Shown here: positions 12,560-36,907 of the stretch, piece after piece
Position numbering within the stretch: position 1 is the first letter of the stretch
How the letters are laid out: every line of letters begins with the position of its first letter
Assembly (NCBI GenBank): GCA_013152715.1
Contig: JAADFU010000094.1
Span: 12,610-76,609, forward strand
Reading direction: 5' to 3'
Length of the DNA stretch: 64,000 nucleotides
From: Calditrichota bacterium
GTDB lineage: Bacteria > Zhuqueibacterota > Zhuqueibacteria > Thermofontimicrobiales > Thermofontimicrobiaceae
The notes under the pieces: model-generated
What the model was told of the DNA's origin: nothing
The model's database searches: none
The model's input: the letters and a program-made list of their open reading frames with translations, nothing else
Made by a program: the position numbers and the translations under genes

Positions 12560-13825
12560 ATGGGACGTTACATCGCTTTCATTATCATGGGGTTTTTCAT
12601 CAGTACTTCTACATTGCGGATGCAGGCAAATCGCTACACCACCGCCAGCGTGAATAATTTTTCGGATAAATACAAGAAATTAGTTGTCAAAAATGTCGCA
12701 AACACTGGCGCTACAATTGCATTAAATGCCTTGACAGTCAACATCAATGAAATAAAAGGCATTAAAAATCAGCCTATTGATGGCGGTCATTTTTCTTACT
12801 TTCTTGAAAGACAAAAAGATGATCCAAAGTTAGGCCCGACTGAGATAAGAGTCACTTCTATTGGTCACTTTATGAATAAGACAGACACGGTGATCGTTTT
12901 GCTAACGCGCCCCTCATTTTCACGCTATGCCTATTTCACAAATCACGAAGGAAATATCTGGTTTGCCACAGGAGACACAATTTACGGTCCCTGCCACACA
13001 AACACTTATTTTCAGATGGCAGGACGACCTGTTTTTTACGGAAAAGTGACGAGCGCAAAAGTCTATAATTCACATAGCCCTTATCGTAAATATTACTACG
13101 GCCTGACAGATCCCAAATTTTACGGCGGCACAGAATGGGGAATTCCTAAACTTCCTATGCCGACTCAAATTCCTCAGGACTTAATCGATGCCGCGAAGAA
13201 CGGAGGCATCTACATTTCAAAAAGGCACGTCTGGATGAAGTTCCGATCGAACGGCACAGTGAAAATCGCAGCGAAAAATTCTTCGAAAACGCCCAAATCA
13301 TGGGAATATACAACTTACAACCTCAATAGCACAAACGGCGTTATTTACATCACGAATAGCGGCTCAAGGCCAACAGTGCGCGTCAAAGGCACAGTCAATG
13401 GAAAAGTGACTGTGGGAACCCGCGGCTACATGAGAATCACAGGCGACATCGTTTACGCCGATGATCCGCGCGTAAACCCAAACTCCAACGATTTGTTGGG
13501 ATTGCTTTCAGAACGAGATATTATTGTTTACAATAACCATCACGATCAAGATCGGACAATTCAAGCAAGCATTATGACTTTGGACCCTGCCACGGCTCCA
13601 AACAAGAATTTTTGGGTCGATCGCTACAAATATGATCGTTACGGACGTTTGCATTTATTGGGCGGTTTGATTCAAAATTCACGCGGCGCCGTGGGGCTGG
13701 TCGGAAGCTACTACAGCAGAAAAGGCTATCTCAAAGATTACCACTGGGACCAAAGACTAATGAAAATGAGCCCGCCTTATTTTCCTGCATTATTCGCTTT
13801 GCGCAAAATTTCCTGGTGGGAATAA
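12560..13825 (+). CDS. Pilin-like anchored protein C' (second copy, 421 aa)
   Basis: N-terminal helix YIAFIIMGFFISTST. Beta-rich Gly repeats (GTVNGKVTVGTRGYMRITGDIVYADD, HLLGGLIQNSRGAVGLVGSYY). Same position in the cassette as 10279-11322. Confidence 0.35.
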   Translation: MGRYIAFIIMGFFISTSTLRMQANRYTTASVNNFSDKYKKLVVKNVANTGATIALNALTVNINEIKGIKNQPIDGGHFSYFLERQKDDPKLGPTEIRVTSIGHFMNKTDTVIVLLTRPSFSRYAYFTNHEGNIWFATGDTIYGPCHTNTYFQMAGRPVFYGKVTSAKVYNSHSPYRKYYYGLTDPKFYGGTEWGIPKLPMPTQIPQDLIDAAKNGGIYISKRHVWMKFRSNGTVKIAAKNSSKTPKSWEYTTYNLNSTNGVIYITNSGSRPTVRVKGTVNGKVTVGTRGYMRITGDIVYADDPRVNPNSNDLLGLLSERDIIVYNNHHDQDRTIQASIMTLDPATAPNKNFWVDRYKYDRYGRLHLLGGLIQNSRGAVGLVGSYYSRKGYLKDYHWDQRLMKMSPPYFPALFALRKISWWE

Positions 13826-14999: not shown

Positions 15000-16394
15000 A
15001 TGGAAAATGAAAACAATGATCCGAGAACAGTTCTGGTGGTCGACGATGATATTGTTGATCTGAAAATTATGGAGCGTTTTTTCTTAAACAATAATTATCC
15101 GCATCTGCTCGCTAAAAATGCTGCTGACGGTTTATTGCTTTACCACAAACATTATCCGAAAATCATTTTCATCGATTTGCTGCTTCCGGACATGAATGGT
15201 ATTACATTGATGGAAGAAATTATCCGTGAAGATCCCGAAGTCTCCATCGTCATCGCTACGGGCCACGCTTCAGTGGAAACTGCGGTCGAGGCGATCAAAA
15301 AAGGCGCCTGCGACTATATCACCAAGCCTATTGATATGTATCAGTTGTCGCTTTTGACAGAACGTCTGGTAAAATCGCAGCAAGTTTTGCTGGAAAAAAA
15401 TCTTTTGCAGGCGAGATTGGATGAATTGTTTGGGTTTCATAATTTTATCGGCCAAAGCCAGCAGATCAAAAATGTCATTCGTCAAATCTTGCAAGTCGCC
15501 CGCACAAGTGCGACAGCGCTCATCACCGGCGAATCCGGAACCGGAAAAGAACTTTGCGCCAATGCCATTCACCAATCCAGTCCAAGAAAAAATAAACCAT
15601 TCATCAAACTAAATTGTGCCGCTCTGCCTGAGAATATCATTGAAAGCGAACTTTTCGGCCATGAAAAAGGCGCGTTTACCTCAGCGATTCAAAAACGCAT
15701 TGGGAAATTTGAATTGGCGGACGGCGGCACCATTTTCCTGGACGAGATCGGAGACCTTTCAATTTCTATTCAAGCAAAACTGTTGCGCGTGCTCGAGAAC
15801 CAGGAATTTGAGCGAATTGGCGGCAATCAGACAATTAAAGTGGACGTGCGCCTCGTCGCCGCCACAAACAGAGATTTAAGACAAGCGGTGGAAAAGGGGC
15901 TTTTCCGCGAGGACTTATTTTATCGGTTGAATGTGGTTAATATTCATATTCCACCGCTTCGCGAGCGACGTGAAGATATTCCGGTGCTTCTGACTCATTT
16001 TCTCCAACATTTCGCGGAGCAGATGAATAAACCAATTAAGTCAATTTCGGCGAAGGCACAAGCGTTGCTCAACTCATATTCTTGGCCAGGCAATGTGAGA
16101 GAGTTAGTCAATACGATTGAGCGGGCAGTTGTTTTTTGCGAGTCAAGCACAGTAACGGAGCGGGACCTGCCAGATCAGATCGCCGGAGCAAGCAACGACC
16201 CAGCAAACTCATGGAATATGCCGTTGTTGCCTTTGGCTCAGATGGAAAAAAAGTTGATCGAGCGAGTGTTAATCGAAACCAATTGGAATTTACGTCGCGC
16301 TGCGAAAATTTTAAACATCCATCGTGGAACTCTTTACAGCAAAATTGAAAAACATGGGATTAAGAAAAACAAATTATTGATGGCGTTCAATTAA
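15000..16394 (+). CDS. Sigma-54-dependent Fis-family response regulator (NtrC/PilR-like: REC + AAA+ sigma-54 activator + HTH)
   Basis: Receiver domain (VLVVDDD…D…T…K). Sigma-54 interaction domain with Walker A GESGTGKE, the GAFTSA loop and LDEIGD. C-terminal Fis-type HTH (LRRAAKILNIHRGTLYSKI). The ORF track starts at 14919; the start at ATG 15000 (MENENNDPRTV) or 14955 is uncertain. Confidence 0.85.
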   Translation: MENENNDPRTVLVVDDDIVDLKIMERFFLNNNYPHLLAKNAADGLLLYHKHYPKIIFIDLLLPDMNGITLMEEIIREDPEVSIVIATGHASVETAVEAIKKGACDYITKPIDMYQLSLLTERLVKSQQVLLEKNLLQARLDELFGFHNFIGQSQQIKNVIRQILQVARTSATALITGESGTGKELCANAIHQSSPRKNKPFIKLNCAALPENIIESELFGHEKGAFTSAIQKRIGKFELADGGTIFLDEIGDLSISIQAKLLRVLENQEFERIGGNQTIKVDVRLVAATNRDLRQAVEKGLFREDLFYRLNVVNIHIPPLRERREDIPVLLTHFLQHFAEQMNKPIKSISAKAQALLNSYSWPGNVRELVNTIERAVVFCESSTVTERDLPDQIAGASNDPANSWNMPLLPLAQMEKKLIERVLIETNWNLRRAAKILNIHRGTLYSKIEKHGIKKNKLLMAFN

Positions 16395-22418: not shown

Positions 22419-23603
22419 TTAGCTCACCAAAAACAACTCCATTTGCCGCGGCGAAAGGAATTCACAGCCATTTTCCGTCACTACCACTTCTTCCTCAATC
22501 GTGGCGACGCCGTAGCCCTCACAAGTCACGCGCGGCTCCAGCGTGTACACCTGACCCGCTTCGACTTTTAAATAGGGCAGATCGCCGTACCGTTCCCAGA
22601 TCGGACAAAGCACTCCGGCGCCATCGTGAGCCTCTCTGCCAACCTGATGGCCCAGCGCGTGCGGATATTCGTCAAAACCGCAATTGACGATGTGTTGCCT
22701 GGCGACATTGTCAACTTCCCAGCCTTCGACACCTGGGCGGAGAAATTCTGCTGCTTTGGTAATTGAATCCCGCACTGCTTCAAACGCCTTTTTCACGGCA
22801 GCCGGCGCTTCTGTTTCTCCTTCACGCAAAAAATACCACGTGCGCTGCAAATCAGAGACGTAGTCAGCTACGCGCACGCCAAAATCCATATTCATGATGT
22901 GACCGCGCTCGGTTTTGCGACCCGTGGGACCGTAATGCGCTCCGGCAGTATCGGGGCCGGTAAAAACTGATGGGCAGGATGTCGCATCCCAGGACAGACC
23001 CACTCCCAATTCATCCACGCGTTTTAATACAAATTGGGCGATTTCTTTTTCCGACAGCCCTGGTTTCAACATGCGCGTTACTTCAGCGAAAATGTCAATG
23101 GTAATGTTGATCGCTTTTTTCAGACGTTCCAATTCAGACAGCGATTTCCGTCCCCGAAGTGCAGAGATTATTTTCTCCGCCGAGGTGAATCGATTGGCGT
23201 AATCGGTGTCTTTCAGATAATCGTTGAGCAGAAGGAACATCCCATGCGTCAGACCATCGGAAACGTGGTCATTAGTAGAATAGTTCAAAGCAATGGATTT
23301 TGGATTCAGGGCAGAAATTTCTTTGAGCAAGTCCTCTCTGAGGGAGGCTTTGTAACTAATCACTTTGTCGTAAACGCCAAGGTCGTTCACCGCGGAATAA
23401 TCCAGATTCCCGACAATAGCGGTTGTTTTTCCGGTGGCAGAAATCAAAAAAGCCGATTGCCAGGTACAAGTCCCGTCGAAAATCAGCGGCAAACTGGGAT
23501 CGGTTAATGTGTGACTTTCGCGGACAAAAATGAGCCAGAGATCAATATTTTTTTCTTGCAGAATGCGAATTGCCTGATCGAGTTTTTCTTTAATCATTTT
23601 CAT
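22419..23603 (-). CDS. M24-family metallopeptidase (Xaa-Pro dipeptidase/aminopeptidase, creatinase fold)
   Basis: Pita-bread fold metal ligands in conserved context (…DFGVRVADYVSDLQRTW…, HALGHQVGREAHD, …TLEPRV…EEEVVVTENG). Confidence 0.8.
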   Translation of the reverse strand: MKMIKEKLDQAIRILQEKNIDLWLIFVRESHTLTDPSLPLIFDGTCTWQSAFLISATGKTTAIVGNLDYSAVNDLGVYDKVISYKASLREDLLKEISALNPKSIALNYSTNDHVSDGLTHGMFLLLNDYLKDTDYANRFTSAEKIISALRGRKSLSELERLKKAINITIDIFAEVTRMLKPGLSEKEIAQFVLKRVDELGVGLSWDATSCPSVFTGPDTAGAHYGPTGRKTERGHIMNMDFGVRVADYVSDLQRTWYFLREGETEAPAAVKKAFEAVRDSITKAAEFLRPGVEGWEVDNVARQHIVNCGFDEYPHALGHQVGREAHDGAGVLCPIWERYGDLPYLKVEAGQVYTLEPRVTCEGYGVATIEEEVVVTENGCEFLSPRQMELFLVS

Positions 23604-31402: not shown

Positions 31403-32446
31403 TTAAATAAATTTCCGAGCCTCTTCTAAAAGTTCCTCCACCGTAGGAACAGCGCCGCCCATTCTTCCGTAGAAATGAATTTCGCGGCGCCCGTTAACGG
31501 CAAGTTTCACATCGTCAACCATTTGTCCGTTGCTGAGTTCAACAACCAGAAAATGTTTGGCGCTTTCAGCAAGATCAGCCACTTTCTTTGTTGGGAAAGG
31601 AAATAAGGTGATAGGGCGCAACAGCCCGACCTTTTTCCCTTCTGCACGAAGGATTTCCACCACATTTTGCAGCATTCGGGAAACAATGCCGTAGCCGACT
31701 AATACTAAATCAGCATCTTCGACATGTAACTCCTCAAAACGAACTTCTTTTTCTGCTAATTCCTGATACTTTCTTTGCAAGTGGCGATTGTGCTCTTCCA
31801 GAATCTGAGTATTCATCAAAATCGACGTGATCAAATTTTTCTGCGTTTTTTTGTCGCCGTACAGAGCCCATTCCTTGTAAGGCACTTTTTTTCGCGTTGT
31901 CGGGAAATCCACTGGTTCCATCATCTGGCCGATGTAAGCATCCGTGAGAACGACGACCGGATTTCGATATTGATCAGCAAGCTCAAACGCAAGCATGGTC
32001 AAATCACACATTTCCTGCGCCGCATTTGGCGCGAGGACGACATTTCGATAATTGCCGTGACCGCCGCCTTTGACGATCTGATTGTAATCGCCCTGTTCCG
32101 GCCAGATATTTCCCAAGCCGGGGCCTGCACGCATCACGTCAATAATAACGCACGGCAACTCAGCGCCGGCGATGTAAGAAATACCTTCCTGCTTCAGGCT
32201 CAATCCGGGTCCCGAAGAAGCTGTCATTACTCTTTTTCCCGCACTGGCAGCACCGTAAACCATATTAATCGCCGCTACTTCGCTTTCCGCTTGCACAAAT
32301 GTGCCTCCCATTAAAGGGAAATAATTTGCAGCCGCTTCGGCAATTTCACTGGCAGGCGTAATCGGATAGCCAAAATACAAACTGCACCCCGCCAGCAAAG
32401 CCCCTTTGACAACTGCCTCGTTACCTTTTATTAATTGTTTAGGCAT
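31403..32446 (-). CDS. korA: 2-oxoacid:ferredoxin oxidoreductase alpha subunit
   Basis: [21 protein letters not shown]…[10 protein letters not shown]…SGPGLSL typical of KorA/PorA. The ORF track extends 28 codons upstream into korD; the start at MPKQL is preferred. Confidence 0.85.
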
Positions 32447-32448
32447 AA

Positions 32449-32700
32449 CTATTCTCCCTTTGCTTTTTTGTAAACAATTATCGCTCCTGGTTCCGGACAG
32501 GCGTAAAAGCAAATCGTACAACCGGTACATCCCTCTCCTGTATATCGAGCGTAATTATATCCCATCTGATTAAATTTACCGGAAAATTCAATCACGTCTT
32601 TGGGACAATGTTCTATGCAAAGCCCGCATCCCTTGCAAAGTTCGTTTACAACTTCAATCGCCGGTAGCGCCATATCAACTTCAACGATCTCGCTTGCCAT
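32449..32700 (-). CDS. korD: 4Fe-4S ferredoxin-type delta subunit of 2-oxoacid:ferredoxin oxidoreductase
   Basis: Two CxxCxxCxxxCP clusters ([24 protein letters not shown]). Immediately upstream of korA. Confidence 0.8.
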
Positions 32701-33066
32701 GAACGCCTCCTTAAAATAAAATTTGATATTTTAACTAAAATTTAGAATCTTGTTCTGCAAAATGACAGATTTGCCTTATTTGATAACTCAATTAGAGAAA
32801 ATATTATAACAATTTTTTTTCTGTTTTGCAAGGATTTTTTCCTCTTTTTCAAGAAAAATGTCTTCCTTTGCCCTGTTAAAGGCAATTTACCGATCTCGTG
32901 AAAACAAAAAATGTCAATTTTGCAAGTTTTCTCTTGACTCATTGGATTTTTTTCATTAATTTAAAAGCTCTTAAATTGCAGCAACGAATTTGTTCCTTCA
33001 TTTAAAACGAAGCCGTTGGTTCTTTATCGAATTCTACTGATTTTTTGATCTTGCAAAGAGGCATTT

Positions 33067-33540
33067 ATGAAAAGAGCCACACAATTATTGTTTGCACTCT
33101 TTTTCATTCTTTCCCTCAGTTCGGTTCTTTCAGGCAAGGATGAAACAATTTTTGAACAACGCCGCCAGAAAATTCTTCAAAGCATGCCCGAAAACAGCCT
33201 GCTCATTCTCGCAGCAACTCCTGAATGCTATCGTTTCGGATTTAATTTTCACCAGAACAGCGATCTTTTCTATCTCACCGGCAACCGCAACGAAGCAGTC
33301 ATCGAGTCATGGACGCCGGGAATTTACATCCCGGAAAATTCAGAGCTGCCCAAAGAATACTGGAACATCGGCGTGGGAATCGAAGACGGTATTTTGATCA
33401 CCGAAAACGGTCATCGATTGCTGGCGAGGGGGCTTATCAAATCAGTGGATGATATTGGAAAATTGATGGCAGAAAAAAGTATCTTGGAAAAATTTACAGC
33501 GAAGAAGCAGTCAAATAAAAGTCAGGCGCGGGCTTTTTAA
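33067..33540 (+). CDS. Secreted mini-protein derived from aminopeptidase P (PepP): N-terminal ~55 aa joined in-frame to C-terminal ~60 aa, catalytic core missing (probable gene remnant)
   Basis: Signal peptide, then [22 protein letters not shown]…[19 protein letters not shown] (matches the PepP N-terminus FQRRRQAL…YRQNSDFWYFTGFNEPEAVL). This is joined directly to [26 protein letters not shown]…DDIGKLM (matches the PepP C-terminus PEQYRGIGIRIEDDIVITETGNENLT…EEIEALM). Confidence 0.5.
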
Positions 33541-33598
33541 AGAAAAATTTTTTTTCACAAGCAAAAATAGAAAAACGACATCATTAACGAGAAAAAAT

Positions 33599-35149
33599 AT
33601 GACGAAAGATCCTAAATTAGAAAAACTTTTCCAGCTAAAAAAAGAGGCAAAATTAGGCGGCGGCCAACATCGTATCGAAACGCAGCATAAGAAAGGGAAA
33701 CTCACTGCGCGCGAACGAATCGAACTTTTGCTCGACAGAGATTCTTTTGTGGAAATGGACATGTTCGTCAAACATCGCTGCACCGATTTTGGTCTGGACA
33801 AAGAAAAGTATCCCGGTGACGGCGTGATTACCGGCTACGGACGAATCGAAGGACGGCTTGTTTTTATTTTTTCCCAGGATTTCACCGTCTTCGGCGGTTC
33901 GCTTTCCGAAAGTTACGCGAAAAAAATTTGCAAAATCATGGATTTAGCCATGAAAGTCGGCGCCCCGGTCATTGGCATTAACGACTCCGGCGGCGCGCGC
34001 ATCCAGGAAGGTGTGGACAGTCTCGGCGGTTACGCGGAAATTTTTCTTCGCAACACGCTGGCGTCCGGAGTGATTCCGCAAATTAGCATCGTCGCCGGGC
34101 CCTGTGCCGGCGGCGCAGTTTACTCGCCGGCGATTACAGATTTCATTTTCATGGTAAAAAACACCTCCTACATGTTCGTCACCGGACCTAATGTGGTGAA
34201 AACTGTCACCCACGAAAATGTCAGTTTCGAAGAATTGGGTGGCGCCATCACCCACAGCAGCAAAAGCGGCGTCTCTCATTTTGCCTGCGAAAATGAAATT
34301 GCCGCGTTCGAAGCTGTGAGAAAACTTATGAGCTACGTGCCGCTCAACAATGTCGATGATCCGCCATTTGTGGAGACAAACGATCCGGTCGATCGCAGCG
34401 ATGAGCGTCTGGACACTATTGTTCCTGACAATCCGAATAAACCGTACGACATGAAAGACATCATTCGCCTCGTGGTTGACGACGGCGAATTTCTCGAAGT
34501 TCAACCTGATTGGGCGGCAAACATCATCATTGGTTTTGCGCGTTTGGGAGGCTACTCCGTTGGCATCGTAGGAAATCAGCCCATGGTACTGGCTGGCGTG
34601 CTGGACATTGATTCTTCCAGCAAAGCGGCGAGATTTGTCCGTTTCTGCGACGCATTCAATATTCCGCTGATTACCTTCGTTGACGTGCCCGGATTTTTGC
34701 CCGGAACGGCACAGGAATTCGGCGGTATCATTAAGCATGGCGCTAAATTGCTTTACGCCTTTTGCGAAGCGACCGTGCCTAAAATCACTATCATCACTCG
34801 AAAAGCTTACGGCGGCGCCTACGACGTCATGAGCAGTAAACACATCCGCGGCGACGTTAATTTGGCCTGGCCTTCCGCAGAATTAGCTGTGATGGGGCCC
34901 AAAGGCGCCGTGGAAATTATTTTCAAAAAAGAGATTGCCGCCGCCAATGATCCGGACAAGGCATTAGAGGAAAAATTATCCGAATTCATCACTGAATTTG
35001 CCAACCCCTACAAAGCAGCCGAGCGCGGCTATATTGACGATGTGATTGAGCCGAAATTCACCAGACCGAATTTGATTCAAGCGCTGCAAATGTTAGAAAC
35101 AAAAACCGACACTAATCCGAGGAAGAAACACGGAAATATTCCACTTTGA
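33599..35149 (+). CDS. Acyl-CoA carboxylase carboxyltransferase subunit (propionyl-CoA carboxylase beta / methylmalonyl-CoA carboxyltransferase family)
   Basis: Full-length carboxyl-transferase pattern (…[14 protein letters not shown]…[22 protein letters not shown]…[13 protein letters not shown]…). Confidence 0.85.
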
Positions 35150-35166
35150 TTTTTTAAATTTTCCCG

Positions 35167-35205
35167 CCCTTTCAGAAATTCCAAACCTTTGAAAGGGTTG
35201 AATTG
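35167..35205 (+). terminator. Possible intrinsic terminator after the carboxyltransferase gene (stem CCCTTTCA/TGAAAGGG, 15-nt loop, weak T-rich tail)
   Basis: Inverted repeat at 35167-35174 / 35190-35197 seen in the sequence. Confidence 0.3.
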
Positions 35206-35323
35206 CTGATTTTGAATTTGGAAATTAAAATTCGTTTAAAACTTGGAAATTGTGATTAGGAATTTTTTAAATATATCGCTAAACCATTATTTTTATTAAA
35301 AAATATTACAACGAAGAAAAACT

Positions 35324-36829
35324 ATGTTTTCAAAAATCCTCATCGCTAACCGTGGCGAAATTGCGGTTCGGATAATGCGCACCTGCCGGGAAATGGGCAT
35401 TTCCACAGTGGCGGTCTATTCCGAAGCCGATCAGACAGCCCGCCACGTGGTTTATGCTGACGAAGCCCACCTTTTGGGACCGGCTCCTGCCAACGAAAGC
35501 TATCTTGTCATCGACAAAATCATCGAAATTGCCAAAGAGAGCGGCGCCGAAGCCATTCATCCGGGATACGGTTTTTTGGCGGAAAATCCGATTTTCGCCC
35601 AGCGCGTGGTGGAAAATGGTCTTATCTTCATCGGGCCTAAACCAGAGACAATCGCGCTGTTAGGTGACAAAATGGCTGCTCGTCAGATCATGGAAAGAGC
35701 CAACGTGCCCATCGTGCCGGGTATGAAAGAGCCAATTTTTTCTCCGCAGCAAGCCTTGCAATTCGCGCAGCAGGTTGGCTATCCCATTCTTTTGAAAGCA
35801 GCGGCTGGCGGCGGCGGCAAAGGCATGCGCATTGTCCGCAACGATTCAGAAATCGAGGAAATGTTTCTGCGCGCGCAATCCGAAGCACAATCCGCATTTG
35901 GCGACAAGCGCGTTTATCTGGAAAAATATCTGGAAAAACCGCGCCACATTGAAATTCAAATTTTGGCGGATGCACACGGAAACGTCATTCATCTTGGCGA
36001 ACGAGAATGTTCAATTCAGCGGCGGCATCAGAAAGTGATCGAAGAATCTCCCTCTCCGGTCGTGGACGAAAATCTGCGGGTTAAAATGGGCGCAACAGCG
36101 GTGAAGGCAGCAAAGGCGTCAGGATATGTGAATGCCGGAACCGTGGAGTTTCTGCTGGATCACGACAAAAAATTTTATTTCCTTGAGGTCAATACGCGTC
36201 TGCAAGTGGAGCATCCGGTCACGGAATTGCTCACCGGACTCGATCTGGTTCGGGAACAAATTCTCGTCGCGGCAGGTGAAAAATTATCGTTGACGCAACA
36301 AGACGTCCAATTTCGCGGTCACGCTATCGAATGCCGCATCTACGCCGAGGATGCGGATAATGAATTTATGCCCTCGGTAGGAACAATTTTCAACTACCGC
36401 GAGCCCGGCGGGCCGGGCGTGCGCGTCGATTCGGGGTTTGGCCGCGGAGACACTGTGCCGATTTATTACGACCCCATCATCGCGAAACTGATTACCTGGG
36501 GACACGACAGAGGGCAAGCGATTGGTCGCATGAAACGTGCATTGGACGAGTACGTAATTCACGGAATTCAGTCAATTATTCCCTTCCACCGCCGGCTTAT
36601 GGAATTGAAAGATTTTGAAACGGGAAATCTATCGACGCATTTCATTCAGGAACATTTCGCACAAAGCAACGAAATTGAAAAATTCAGCGAGAAAGAATTA
36701 GAGGCATTGGCGGCTTTGGTGTGTGCAGTTGATTATTCCGAAAAAAAACGTGCCAGTGGTTTTATTTCCCCAAAGCCGATGCAAAATTGGAAAATGATTC
36801 AGAGATATTGTCAATTGTTGAATCGATAA
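35324..36829 (+). CDS. accC: Biotin carboxylase subunit (acetyl/propionyl-CoA carboxylase)
   Basis: MFSKILIANRGEIAVRIMRTCREMGI… ATP-grasp motifs, …EVNTRLQVEHPVTE… conserved biotin carboxylase core. Confidence 0.9.
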   Translation: MFSKILIANRGEIAVRIMRTCREMGISTVAVYSEADQTARHVVYADEAHLLGPAPANESYLVIDKIIEIAKESGAEAIHPGYGFLAENPIFAQRVVENGLIFIGPKPETIALLGDKMAARQIMERANVPIVPGMKEPIFSPQQALQFAQQVGYPILLKAAAGGGGKGMRIVRNDSEIEEMFLRAQSEAQSAFGDKRVYLEKYLEKPRHIEIQILADAHGNVIHLGERECSIQRRHQKVIEESPSPVVDENLRVKMGATAVKAAKASGYVNAGTVEFLLDHDKKFYFLEVNTRLQVEHPVTELLTGLDLVREQILVAAGEKLSLTQQDVQFRGHAIECRIYAEDADNEFMPSVGTIFNYREPGGPGVRVDSGFGRGDTVPIYYDPIIAKLITWGHDRGQAIGRMKRALDEYVIHGIQSIIPFHRRLMELKDFETGNLSTHFIQEHFAQSNEIEKFSEKELEALAALVCAVDYSEKKRASGFISPKPMQNWKMIQRYCQLLNR

Positions 36830-36907
36830 CCATCTTTGTTCTCTTATTTACCTTTCTCTGTAATCTCTGGGACTCGGTGGCTTAAAAATTGAGGGTTCAA
36901 AGCGACT

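Follow-up and report, generated by a model that had tools for sequence, protein, structure and literature searches.

Aminopeptidase P (PepP, MEROPS M24B) is built from an AMP_N domain (PF05195) and a Peptidase_M24 domain (PF00557) with the pita-bread fold, and is represented by the E. coli structures 1A16 and 2BWY. The dinuclear-metal ligands of the E. coli enzyme are D260, D271, H354, E383, and E406. In KSB1/Zhuqueibacterota, PepPs form a signal-peptide-bearing clade (P0195, P0194, P0193, P0002, P0166, and others; 435–445 aa), and every member examined (41/41) is full length and has invariant catalytic residues. These proteins are the direct orthologues of the open reading frame (ORF) described in this study, which is the only copy in which two internal deletions are apparent. 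The ORF is located on the plus strand at positions 33067..33540 of the window (the whole analyzed stretch of 64,000 nucleotides, i.e., positions 12,610 to 76,609 of contig JAADFU010000094.1, assembly GCA_013152715.1); it starts with ATG and is open throughout its 157 codons plus stop. The NCBI record is that of the hypothetical protein GXO74_07395 from a Calditrichaeota bacterium MAG, on a single 156-kb contig, where it is labeled as an ordinary hypothetical protein and not as a pseudogene. The ORF is homologous to PepP at both ends and, compared to the enzyme, lacks ~295 residues, comprising the larger part of AMP_N and almost all of the pita-bread fold. We consider it probable, with good confidence, that it is what remains of a gene for an exported Xaa-Pro aminopeptidase, open but non-functional, and the outcome of lineage-specific decay.

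Methods

The architecture of the deletions was read from protein (MAFFT) and codon alignments to the orthologue P0195 and its locus L081. Lineage-unique changes were counted in the remnant versus P0195, with P0194 as outgroup. Statements on uniqueness rest on an exhaustive HMMER search; a protein search by word index, queried with the 157-aa sequence, recovered nothing but the query and overlooked P0195 despite 69% identity over 78 aa and many shared exact 5-residue words, and negatives of the word-indexed kind are untrustworthy for short queries with split homology. A synteny search queried with PccB over 185,579 species genomes gave, among its best 80 loci, identities of at most 75% spread over many phyla and no pepP-like sequence nearby, PccB being too conserved to fetch syntenic loci. 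The window's own proteins were also looked up in the contig index, where nothing was found.

Results

The Pfam AMP_N profile (PF05195) matched ORF residues 29–76 with an E-value of 3.4e-9 and over profile positions 1–51 of 121 only, and no Peptidase_M24 (PF00557) match was obtained in the Pfam scan of the 157-aa ORF even at E ≤ 10. The NCBIfam model for Xaa-Pro aminopeptidase (PRK10879 / NF008131) was matched in two stretches, reaching 63.8 bits versus an equivalog cut-off of 465 bits. When aligned to the E. coli PepP structures, ORF residues 29–79 corresponded to PepP 8–62 and residues 80–135 to PepP 380–435 without gaps (E ~1e-13). Of the catalytic domain, alignable sequence is thus limited to the final ~55 residues. 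The original prediction, made from the sequence without database searches, had described an in-frame, internally deleted PepP remnant without its catalytic core, and the AMP_N and E. coli alignments bear this out at both ends. Likewise, the exhaustive HMMER search (1.84 billion representatives) returned 769 hits, nearly all of which were 420–560 aa long and matched at both ends. The resemblance is not confined to low-complexity segments, as identity to P0195 amounts to 69% over residues 1–78 and ~65% over residues 84–140, and it is far beyond chance.

P0195 (439 aa, candidate division KSB1 bacterium 4484_87) and P0194 (443 aa; 56% and 61% identity to the ORF at the two ends) were the closest full-length relatives among the retrieved proteins, with identity to P0195 rising to 78% over ORF residues 25–75. 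P0195 was present on four contigs and P0194 on two, all with the order korB-korA-korD on the minus strand, followed on the plus strand by an intact pepP, pccB, a 184-aa ORF, accC, and the gene for the biotin carrier protein (BCCP). In the window, the korD-korA-korB cluster is also on the minus strand and divergent from the remnant at a distance of 366 bp (korD encodes an 83-aa ferredoxin, the other kor proteins are POR_N/PFOR_II and TPP_enzyme_C/POR), and a pccB-like carboxyltransferase gene (516 aa; 33599..35149, plus strand) begins 58 bp 3′ of the remnant and is followed by biotin carboxylase (accC) and BCCP genes. Thus, the slot between korD and pccB that holds the remnant in the window is occupied by an intact pepP in L081–L085, and a 439- or 443-aa pepP at the orthologous locus of both nearest genomes is what the check proposed with the original prediction returned. 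The flanking KorB, KorA, KorD, PccB, AccC, and BCCP proteins of the window were 86–97% identical to those of L081 and 77–93% identical to those of L085. In more distant members of the clade (L091, L092, and L093), an intact 435–443-aa pepP is again divergent from korDAB, with variable genes downstream. Because an intact pepP is found there both in L081–L085 and in L091–L093, the slot divergent from kor is the ancestral home of pepP in this lineage, and the window ORF its orthologue. The remnant had been placed in the divergent promoter region of the kor operon, which agrees with its position next to kor, but this is simply the ancestral position of pepP. By position and sequence the ORF is a descendant of pepP, yet by every structural criterion it falls outside the PepP family.

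Several other differences were observed in the same neighborhood. The 184-aa ORF between pccB and accC, present in both nearest relatives, gave only sub-threshold Gly-zipper/TauE hints and is possibly a small membrane protein; the window has at this place (35150–35323) a unique AT-rich spacer of 174 bp without any trace of the gene, which is thus the second gene, besides pepP, to have been lost within a stretch of 1.6 kb. In L081, an extra 285-aa ORF with a weak DUF5683 match (15063–15920) lies between accC and BCCP and is absent from L085 and from the window (36830–36907). The gene content of the pcc cluster is fluid among close relatives. In the P0194 genome, genes of 222 aa and 593 aa are inserted between korD and pepP (L085 7535–9993, L086 2145–4603), the former assigned to NspV in the precomputed Pfam annotation of the contig record and to no family in our Pfam scan at E ≤ 0.01, and the latter without a Pfam match; the divergent kor/pepP intergenic region is thus a site of insertion in that genome, and a site of deletion in the window. 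The mechanically called korA ORF of the window (31403–32530, minus strand; 375 aa, ATG at 32530) overlaps korD (32449–32700), and because the orthologues are 347 aa long, translation almost certainly begins at the ATG at 32446, 3 bp past the korD stop. Another, intact Peptidase_M24 protein of 393 aa (E 8e-42, without AMP_N) is encoded ~10 kb away (22419–23603, minus strand) and has a counterpart in L081; it is a paralogue, probably a PepQ/creatinase-type enzyme, and by its sequence it is no replacement copy of the exported PepP.

The first 23 residues of the ORF (33067..33135, plus strand) form a putative Sec-type signal peptide, as judged by hydropathy and comparison with the clade; an MKR n-region precedes a hydrophobic core with a maximum of 2.68 (Kyte-Doolittle, 12-residue window). 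All intact clade members examined begin with MKK or MKR followed by a hydrophobic core of 12–15 residues, and such an N-terminus is absent from cytoplasmic PepPs among the hits (P0007, P0014). Residues 1–24 of the ORF are colinear with P0195. Because it is common to all intact clade members, and given the 69% identity to P0195 over this end, the putative signal peptide is inherited and not, as had been supposed, acquired by the remnant.

Codons 1–72 of the ORF are colinear with orthologue codons 1–72, and codons ~84–147 with orthologue codons 378–439, while 11 codons lie between the two colinear ends: NRN (73–75), EAVIE (76–80), and SWT (81–83). Beyond the putative signal peptide, residues 25–72 (33139..33282, plus strand) correspond to orthologue residues 25–72, i.e., approximately the first 40% of AMP_N, on the evidence of the Pfam match, sequence identity, and the codon alignment. 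The first 8 nt of codons 73–75 (33283..33290) are filler, identical in 3–4 of 9 nt to any candidate source, and with position 33291, the third base of codon 75, a 15-nt match to the middle of the gene begins; neither flank matches the NRN filler convincingly, and the first breakpoint seems to fall within it. The mid-gene island CGAAGCAGTCATCGA (33291..33305, plus strand) is an exact 15-nt match to the L081 pepP in the ancestral codon phase and encodes EAVIE, orthologue residues 228–232, which MAFFT aligned to the clade-conserved QIEAVIEF in the middle of the catalytic domain. Against the deleted segment, neither shuffling the 33-nt junction (2000 times, maximum 13 nt) nor drawing random 33-mers from the window (1968, maximum 12 nt) ever gave a match of this length. 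The next three codons, SWT (81–83; 33307..33315, plus strand), stand in place of an invariant TVE and contain the second breakpoint according to the codon alignment; inspection by eye for a path from the ancestral TVE codons to SWT, through point changes or through frameshifts that compensate each other, gave no convincing alignment. Residues 84–147 (33316..33507, plus strand) align to orthologue residues 378–439, the end of the Peptidase_M24 pita-bread domain with its C-terminal helix, and are followed by an extension of 10 codons relative to the closest orthologue, plus the stop (33508..33540).

Because an in-phase, 15-nt mid-gene island sits in the junction, this arrangement implies at least two deletions, which according to the alignment removed ~152 codons (orthologue ~76–227) and ~143 codons (~233–375/377), and because the island is still read in the ancestral phase, each of them was a multiple of three. 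The original prediction therefore has to be amended in its details: the two terminal segments do not abut, as the EAVIE island and the NRN and SWT codons lie between them; EAVI, which had been counted with the N-terminal segment (where the E. coli alignment would also put it), is part of the island; and relative to P0195, ~295 residues are missing instead of ~320. As an alternative, one deletion mediated by microhomology between the NGISIPE and PGLYIPP motifs seen in P0002 was considered, and was dropped after the P0195 orthologue and the 15-nt island had been found.

The same junction bears on the question of whether the gene could be intact in the real genome, with ~885 bp skipped in the MAG contig by an assembly or binning error. 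The source is indeed a single MAG and one 156-kb contig, and another gene shared by both nearest relatives, the 184-aa ORF between pccB and accC, is absent at a distance of only 1.6 kb. De Bruijn assemblers, however, should from the way they work lose sequence only between exact repeats of roughly k-mer length, and direct repeats within the intact orthologues do not exceed 10 nt. The 15-nt island and the two 9-nt stretches that match nothing would moreover require two mis-joins within 45 nt, the gap between pccB and accC is a unique AT-rich spacer of 174 bp and no clean join, and the substitutions R104G, D108G, and E131G are far from the junction and would not be created by an assembly skip. 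We therefore regard an artefact as most unlikely.

With respect to catalysis, the ungapped alignment to E. coli PepP (offset 300) places E406 at E106, so that this glutamate, together with the C-terminal helix of the E. coli enzyme, is kept in the remnant, and places E383 at T83, where the ligand is lost. The counterparts of D260, D271, and H354 fall into the deleted block; 4 of 5 metal ligands are gone, and the predicted product cannot act as a peptidase. Among the columns covered by the remnant, 47 are ≥ 95% conserved in the 41 intact clade proteins, of which the remnant breaks 10 and intact members at most 3. Six of these ten are invariant in 41/41 proteins (T375S, V376W, E377T, R398G, D402G, and E425G in P0195 numbering), and the three invariant positions of the C-part carry R104G, D108G, and E131G in ORF numbering. 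AlphaFold2, run with a 34-sequence family alignment, gave a mean pLDDT of 60.5 and a pTM of 0.30, with residues 54–125 mostly < 50 and the signal peptide as the sole confident helix; the lack of a compact fold in this AlphaFold2 prediction weakly suggests that the remnant does not fold as a unit.

Changes since the divergence from the nearest relatives were unevenly distributed along the ORF. In the C-part (84–140), 12 amino-acid changes are unique to the remnant versus 5 to P0195, a difference not significant alone (p = 0.14), while the N-part (1–75) shows no acceleration (1–3 in the remnant versus 4–6 in P0195), and the two parts of the remnant differ significantly from each other (Fisher p = 0.004). 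Residues without precedent in the clade number 2 in the N-part plus 5 in the C-part, compared with 5–6 in intact neighbours, so by this count the remnant is no more deviant. Nei-Gojobori dN/dS with three-point lineage decomposition was uninformative, since dS was saturated (~1.5) and some values were undefined. In our reading, the extra substitutions are few and show up chiefly at positions where the intact enzyme allows no change. The 157 codons contain neither a frameshift nor a premature stop, and two random deletions would both be in frame by chance in about 1 of 9 cases. Overall, the surviving parts have not diverged more than intact orthologues have, from which we infer that the gene was lost recently compared with the split from the closest relatives that have been sequenced.

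No further copy of the short form was found at E < 1e-30 in the HMMER search of 1.84 billion representatives, and no second copy of the short allele in a metagenome contig scan. The same short protein across many genomes, which had been named as a possible counter-observation, is thus not what is seen: the short form is found in this genome only. A search with BCCP, the fastest-evolving neighbour, revealed no genome closer than those of P0195 and P0194. The allele is a singleton among 15 billion proteins, and one genome of the species is known.

These observations also weigh on an alternative left open by the original prediction, namely that the ORF is a domesticated mini-protein, an exported product of ~134 aa with a new, non-catalytic role, for instance as a binding module in the periplasm or at the surface, or in regulation. 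In favor of this reading, the frame is uninterrupted and was kept by both deletions, the Shine-Dalgarno sequence, the ATG, and the putative signal peptide are intact and conserved, the N-terminal 75 residues carry fewer lineage-unique changes than the intact orthologue, and the three invariant-position substitutions are all to glycine and could be read as remodelling. On the other side, the allele is known in one copy only, AlphaFold2 predicts no compact fold even when given family covariation, and what is retained is ~40% of one domain together with the final strands and helix of a second; in the PepP structures these end pieces are not an autonomous structural unit. The conservation of the 5′ part is equally explained by a recent loss and by expression signals shared with the pcc genes, and a literature search for functional truncated PepPs or mini-proteins found no relevant precedent. 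We consider such a mini-protein unlikely, and its stricter form, in which the in-frame double deletion was the founding event of a new small-protein family and an exported product of ~134 residues (first 48 mature plus last 64 residues) was selected, very unlikely. Of the two possibilities first offered, pseudogene or mini-protein, the former fits better with the intact orthologous loci, the unique short form, and the lost invariant residues, and the latter gained no positive support beyond the open frame and an unaltered 5′ end.

Upstream of the remnant, the divergent kor/pepP intergenic region (32701..33066) measures 366 bp, versus 364 bp in the orthologous L081, and is largely conserved in the alignment with L081 and L082. 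It contains the promoter-like TTGACT (32934–32939)-17 nt-TAATTT (32957–32962), a match to the sigma-70 consensus that may not fit this FCB-group lineage, and a Shine-Dalgarno-like AAAGAGG at 33055–33061 precedes the ATG of the remnant; this promoter-like element, the Shine-Dalgarno sequence, and the ATG are all conserved relative to L081. The ~160 bp directly upstream of korD (32701–32860) are ~89% identical to L081 by eye, versus 84% for the pccB coding DNA, and have promoter-like sites on both strands; this block may be a conserved regulatory element for kor and/or pepP-pcc. An Rfam scan of 32400–35400 for riboswitches or leaders gave no family. The remnant is separated from pccB by 58 bp versus 57 bp in L081, and this gap shows no terminator-like site and, by a sigma-70 consensus that may not apply to the lineage, no promoter-like site. 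From these features, the remnant is probably co-transcribed with pccB, and its 5′ part may be under additional constraint because it belongs to the expression signals.

A sharper version of the decay explanation can be built on this arrangement, in which the peptide is useless and its translation is selected to keep pccB-accC-BCCP expressed (by preventing Rho-dependent polarity and/or by translational coupling), so that the open frame would be selected and not merely not yet broken. It is in line with the short gap to pccB and the sites lacking from it, with the frame kept by both deletions, and with the conservation of the upstream region and 5′ codons. The linkage of pepP and pccB is, however, not ancient: in more distant relatives, other genes such as those for an aminotransferase or methylmalonyl-CoA mutase follow pepP, and pccB can sit elsewhere. 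Moreover, the reading of the gap as promoter-free relies on the sigma-70 consensus, whose validity in this FCB-group lineage is uncertain. Selection for a translated leader is conceivable, although we are inclined to doubt it.

Discussion

What carries the interpretation of the ORF as a decayed gene is its homology to PepP, its orthologous position, the architecture of the deletions, the unique short allele, and the loss of invariant residues. The course of events can be sketched as follows. Two internal deletions in the ancestor of this one genome would have removed nearly all of the AMP_N and pita-bread domains, and would have left 48 N-terminal residues behind the putative signal peptide, an island of 5 mid-gene codons, and ~64 residues at the C-terminal end. 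The product is most likely inert, or else made, exported, and degraded. The promoter, the ribosome-binding site, and the open frame would persist through the presumed recency of the loss, and through the same upstream signals presumably driving pccB-accC-BCCP. Uninterrupted translation would spare the downstream pcc genes transcriptional polarity, and, speculatively, frame-preserving deletions may have been tolerated as they avoid this polarity, an argument that is suggestive at most.

For annotation, GXO74_07395, deposited as a hypothetical protein with an AMP_N match, should be flagged as a pepP remnant, and the kor-pcc locus should not be taken to provide the organism with an exported Xaa-Pro aminopeptidase. 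Because the frame is open and the expression signals look intact, automated annotation treats the remnant as a normal hypothetical protein. The locus illustrates a cryptic pseudogene, apparently expressible and at the head of a gene cluster, which escapes detection based on frameshifts or stops.

Compared with known bacterial internal-deletion pseudogenes, the remnant agrees in that essential parts are lost relative to intact relatives, the truncated form is not conserved, and constraint at former active-site positions may be relaxed. It differs from them in that it has no frameshift or premature stop and its expression signals look intact. It is therefore best filed as a cryptic, frame-preserving pseudogene, i.e., as ordinary bacterial gene decay in an unusually clean form.
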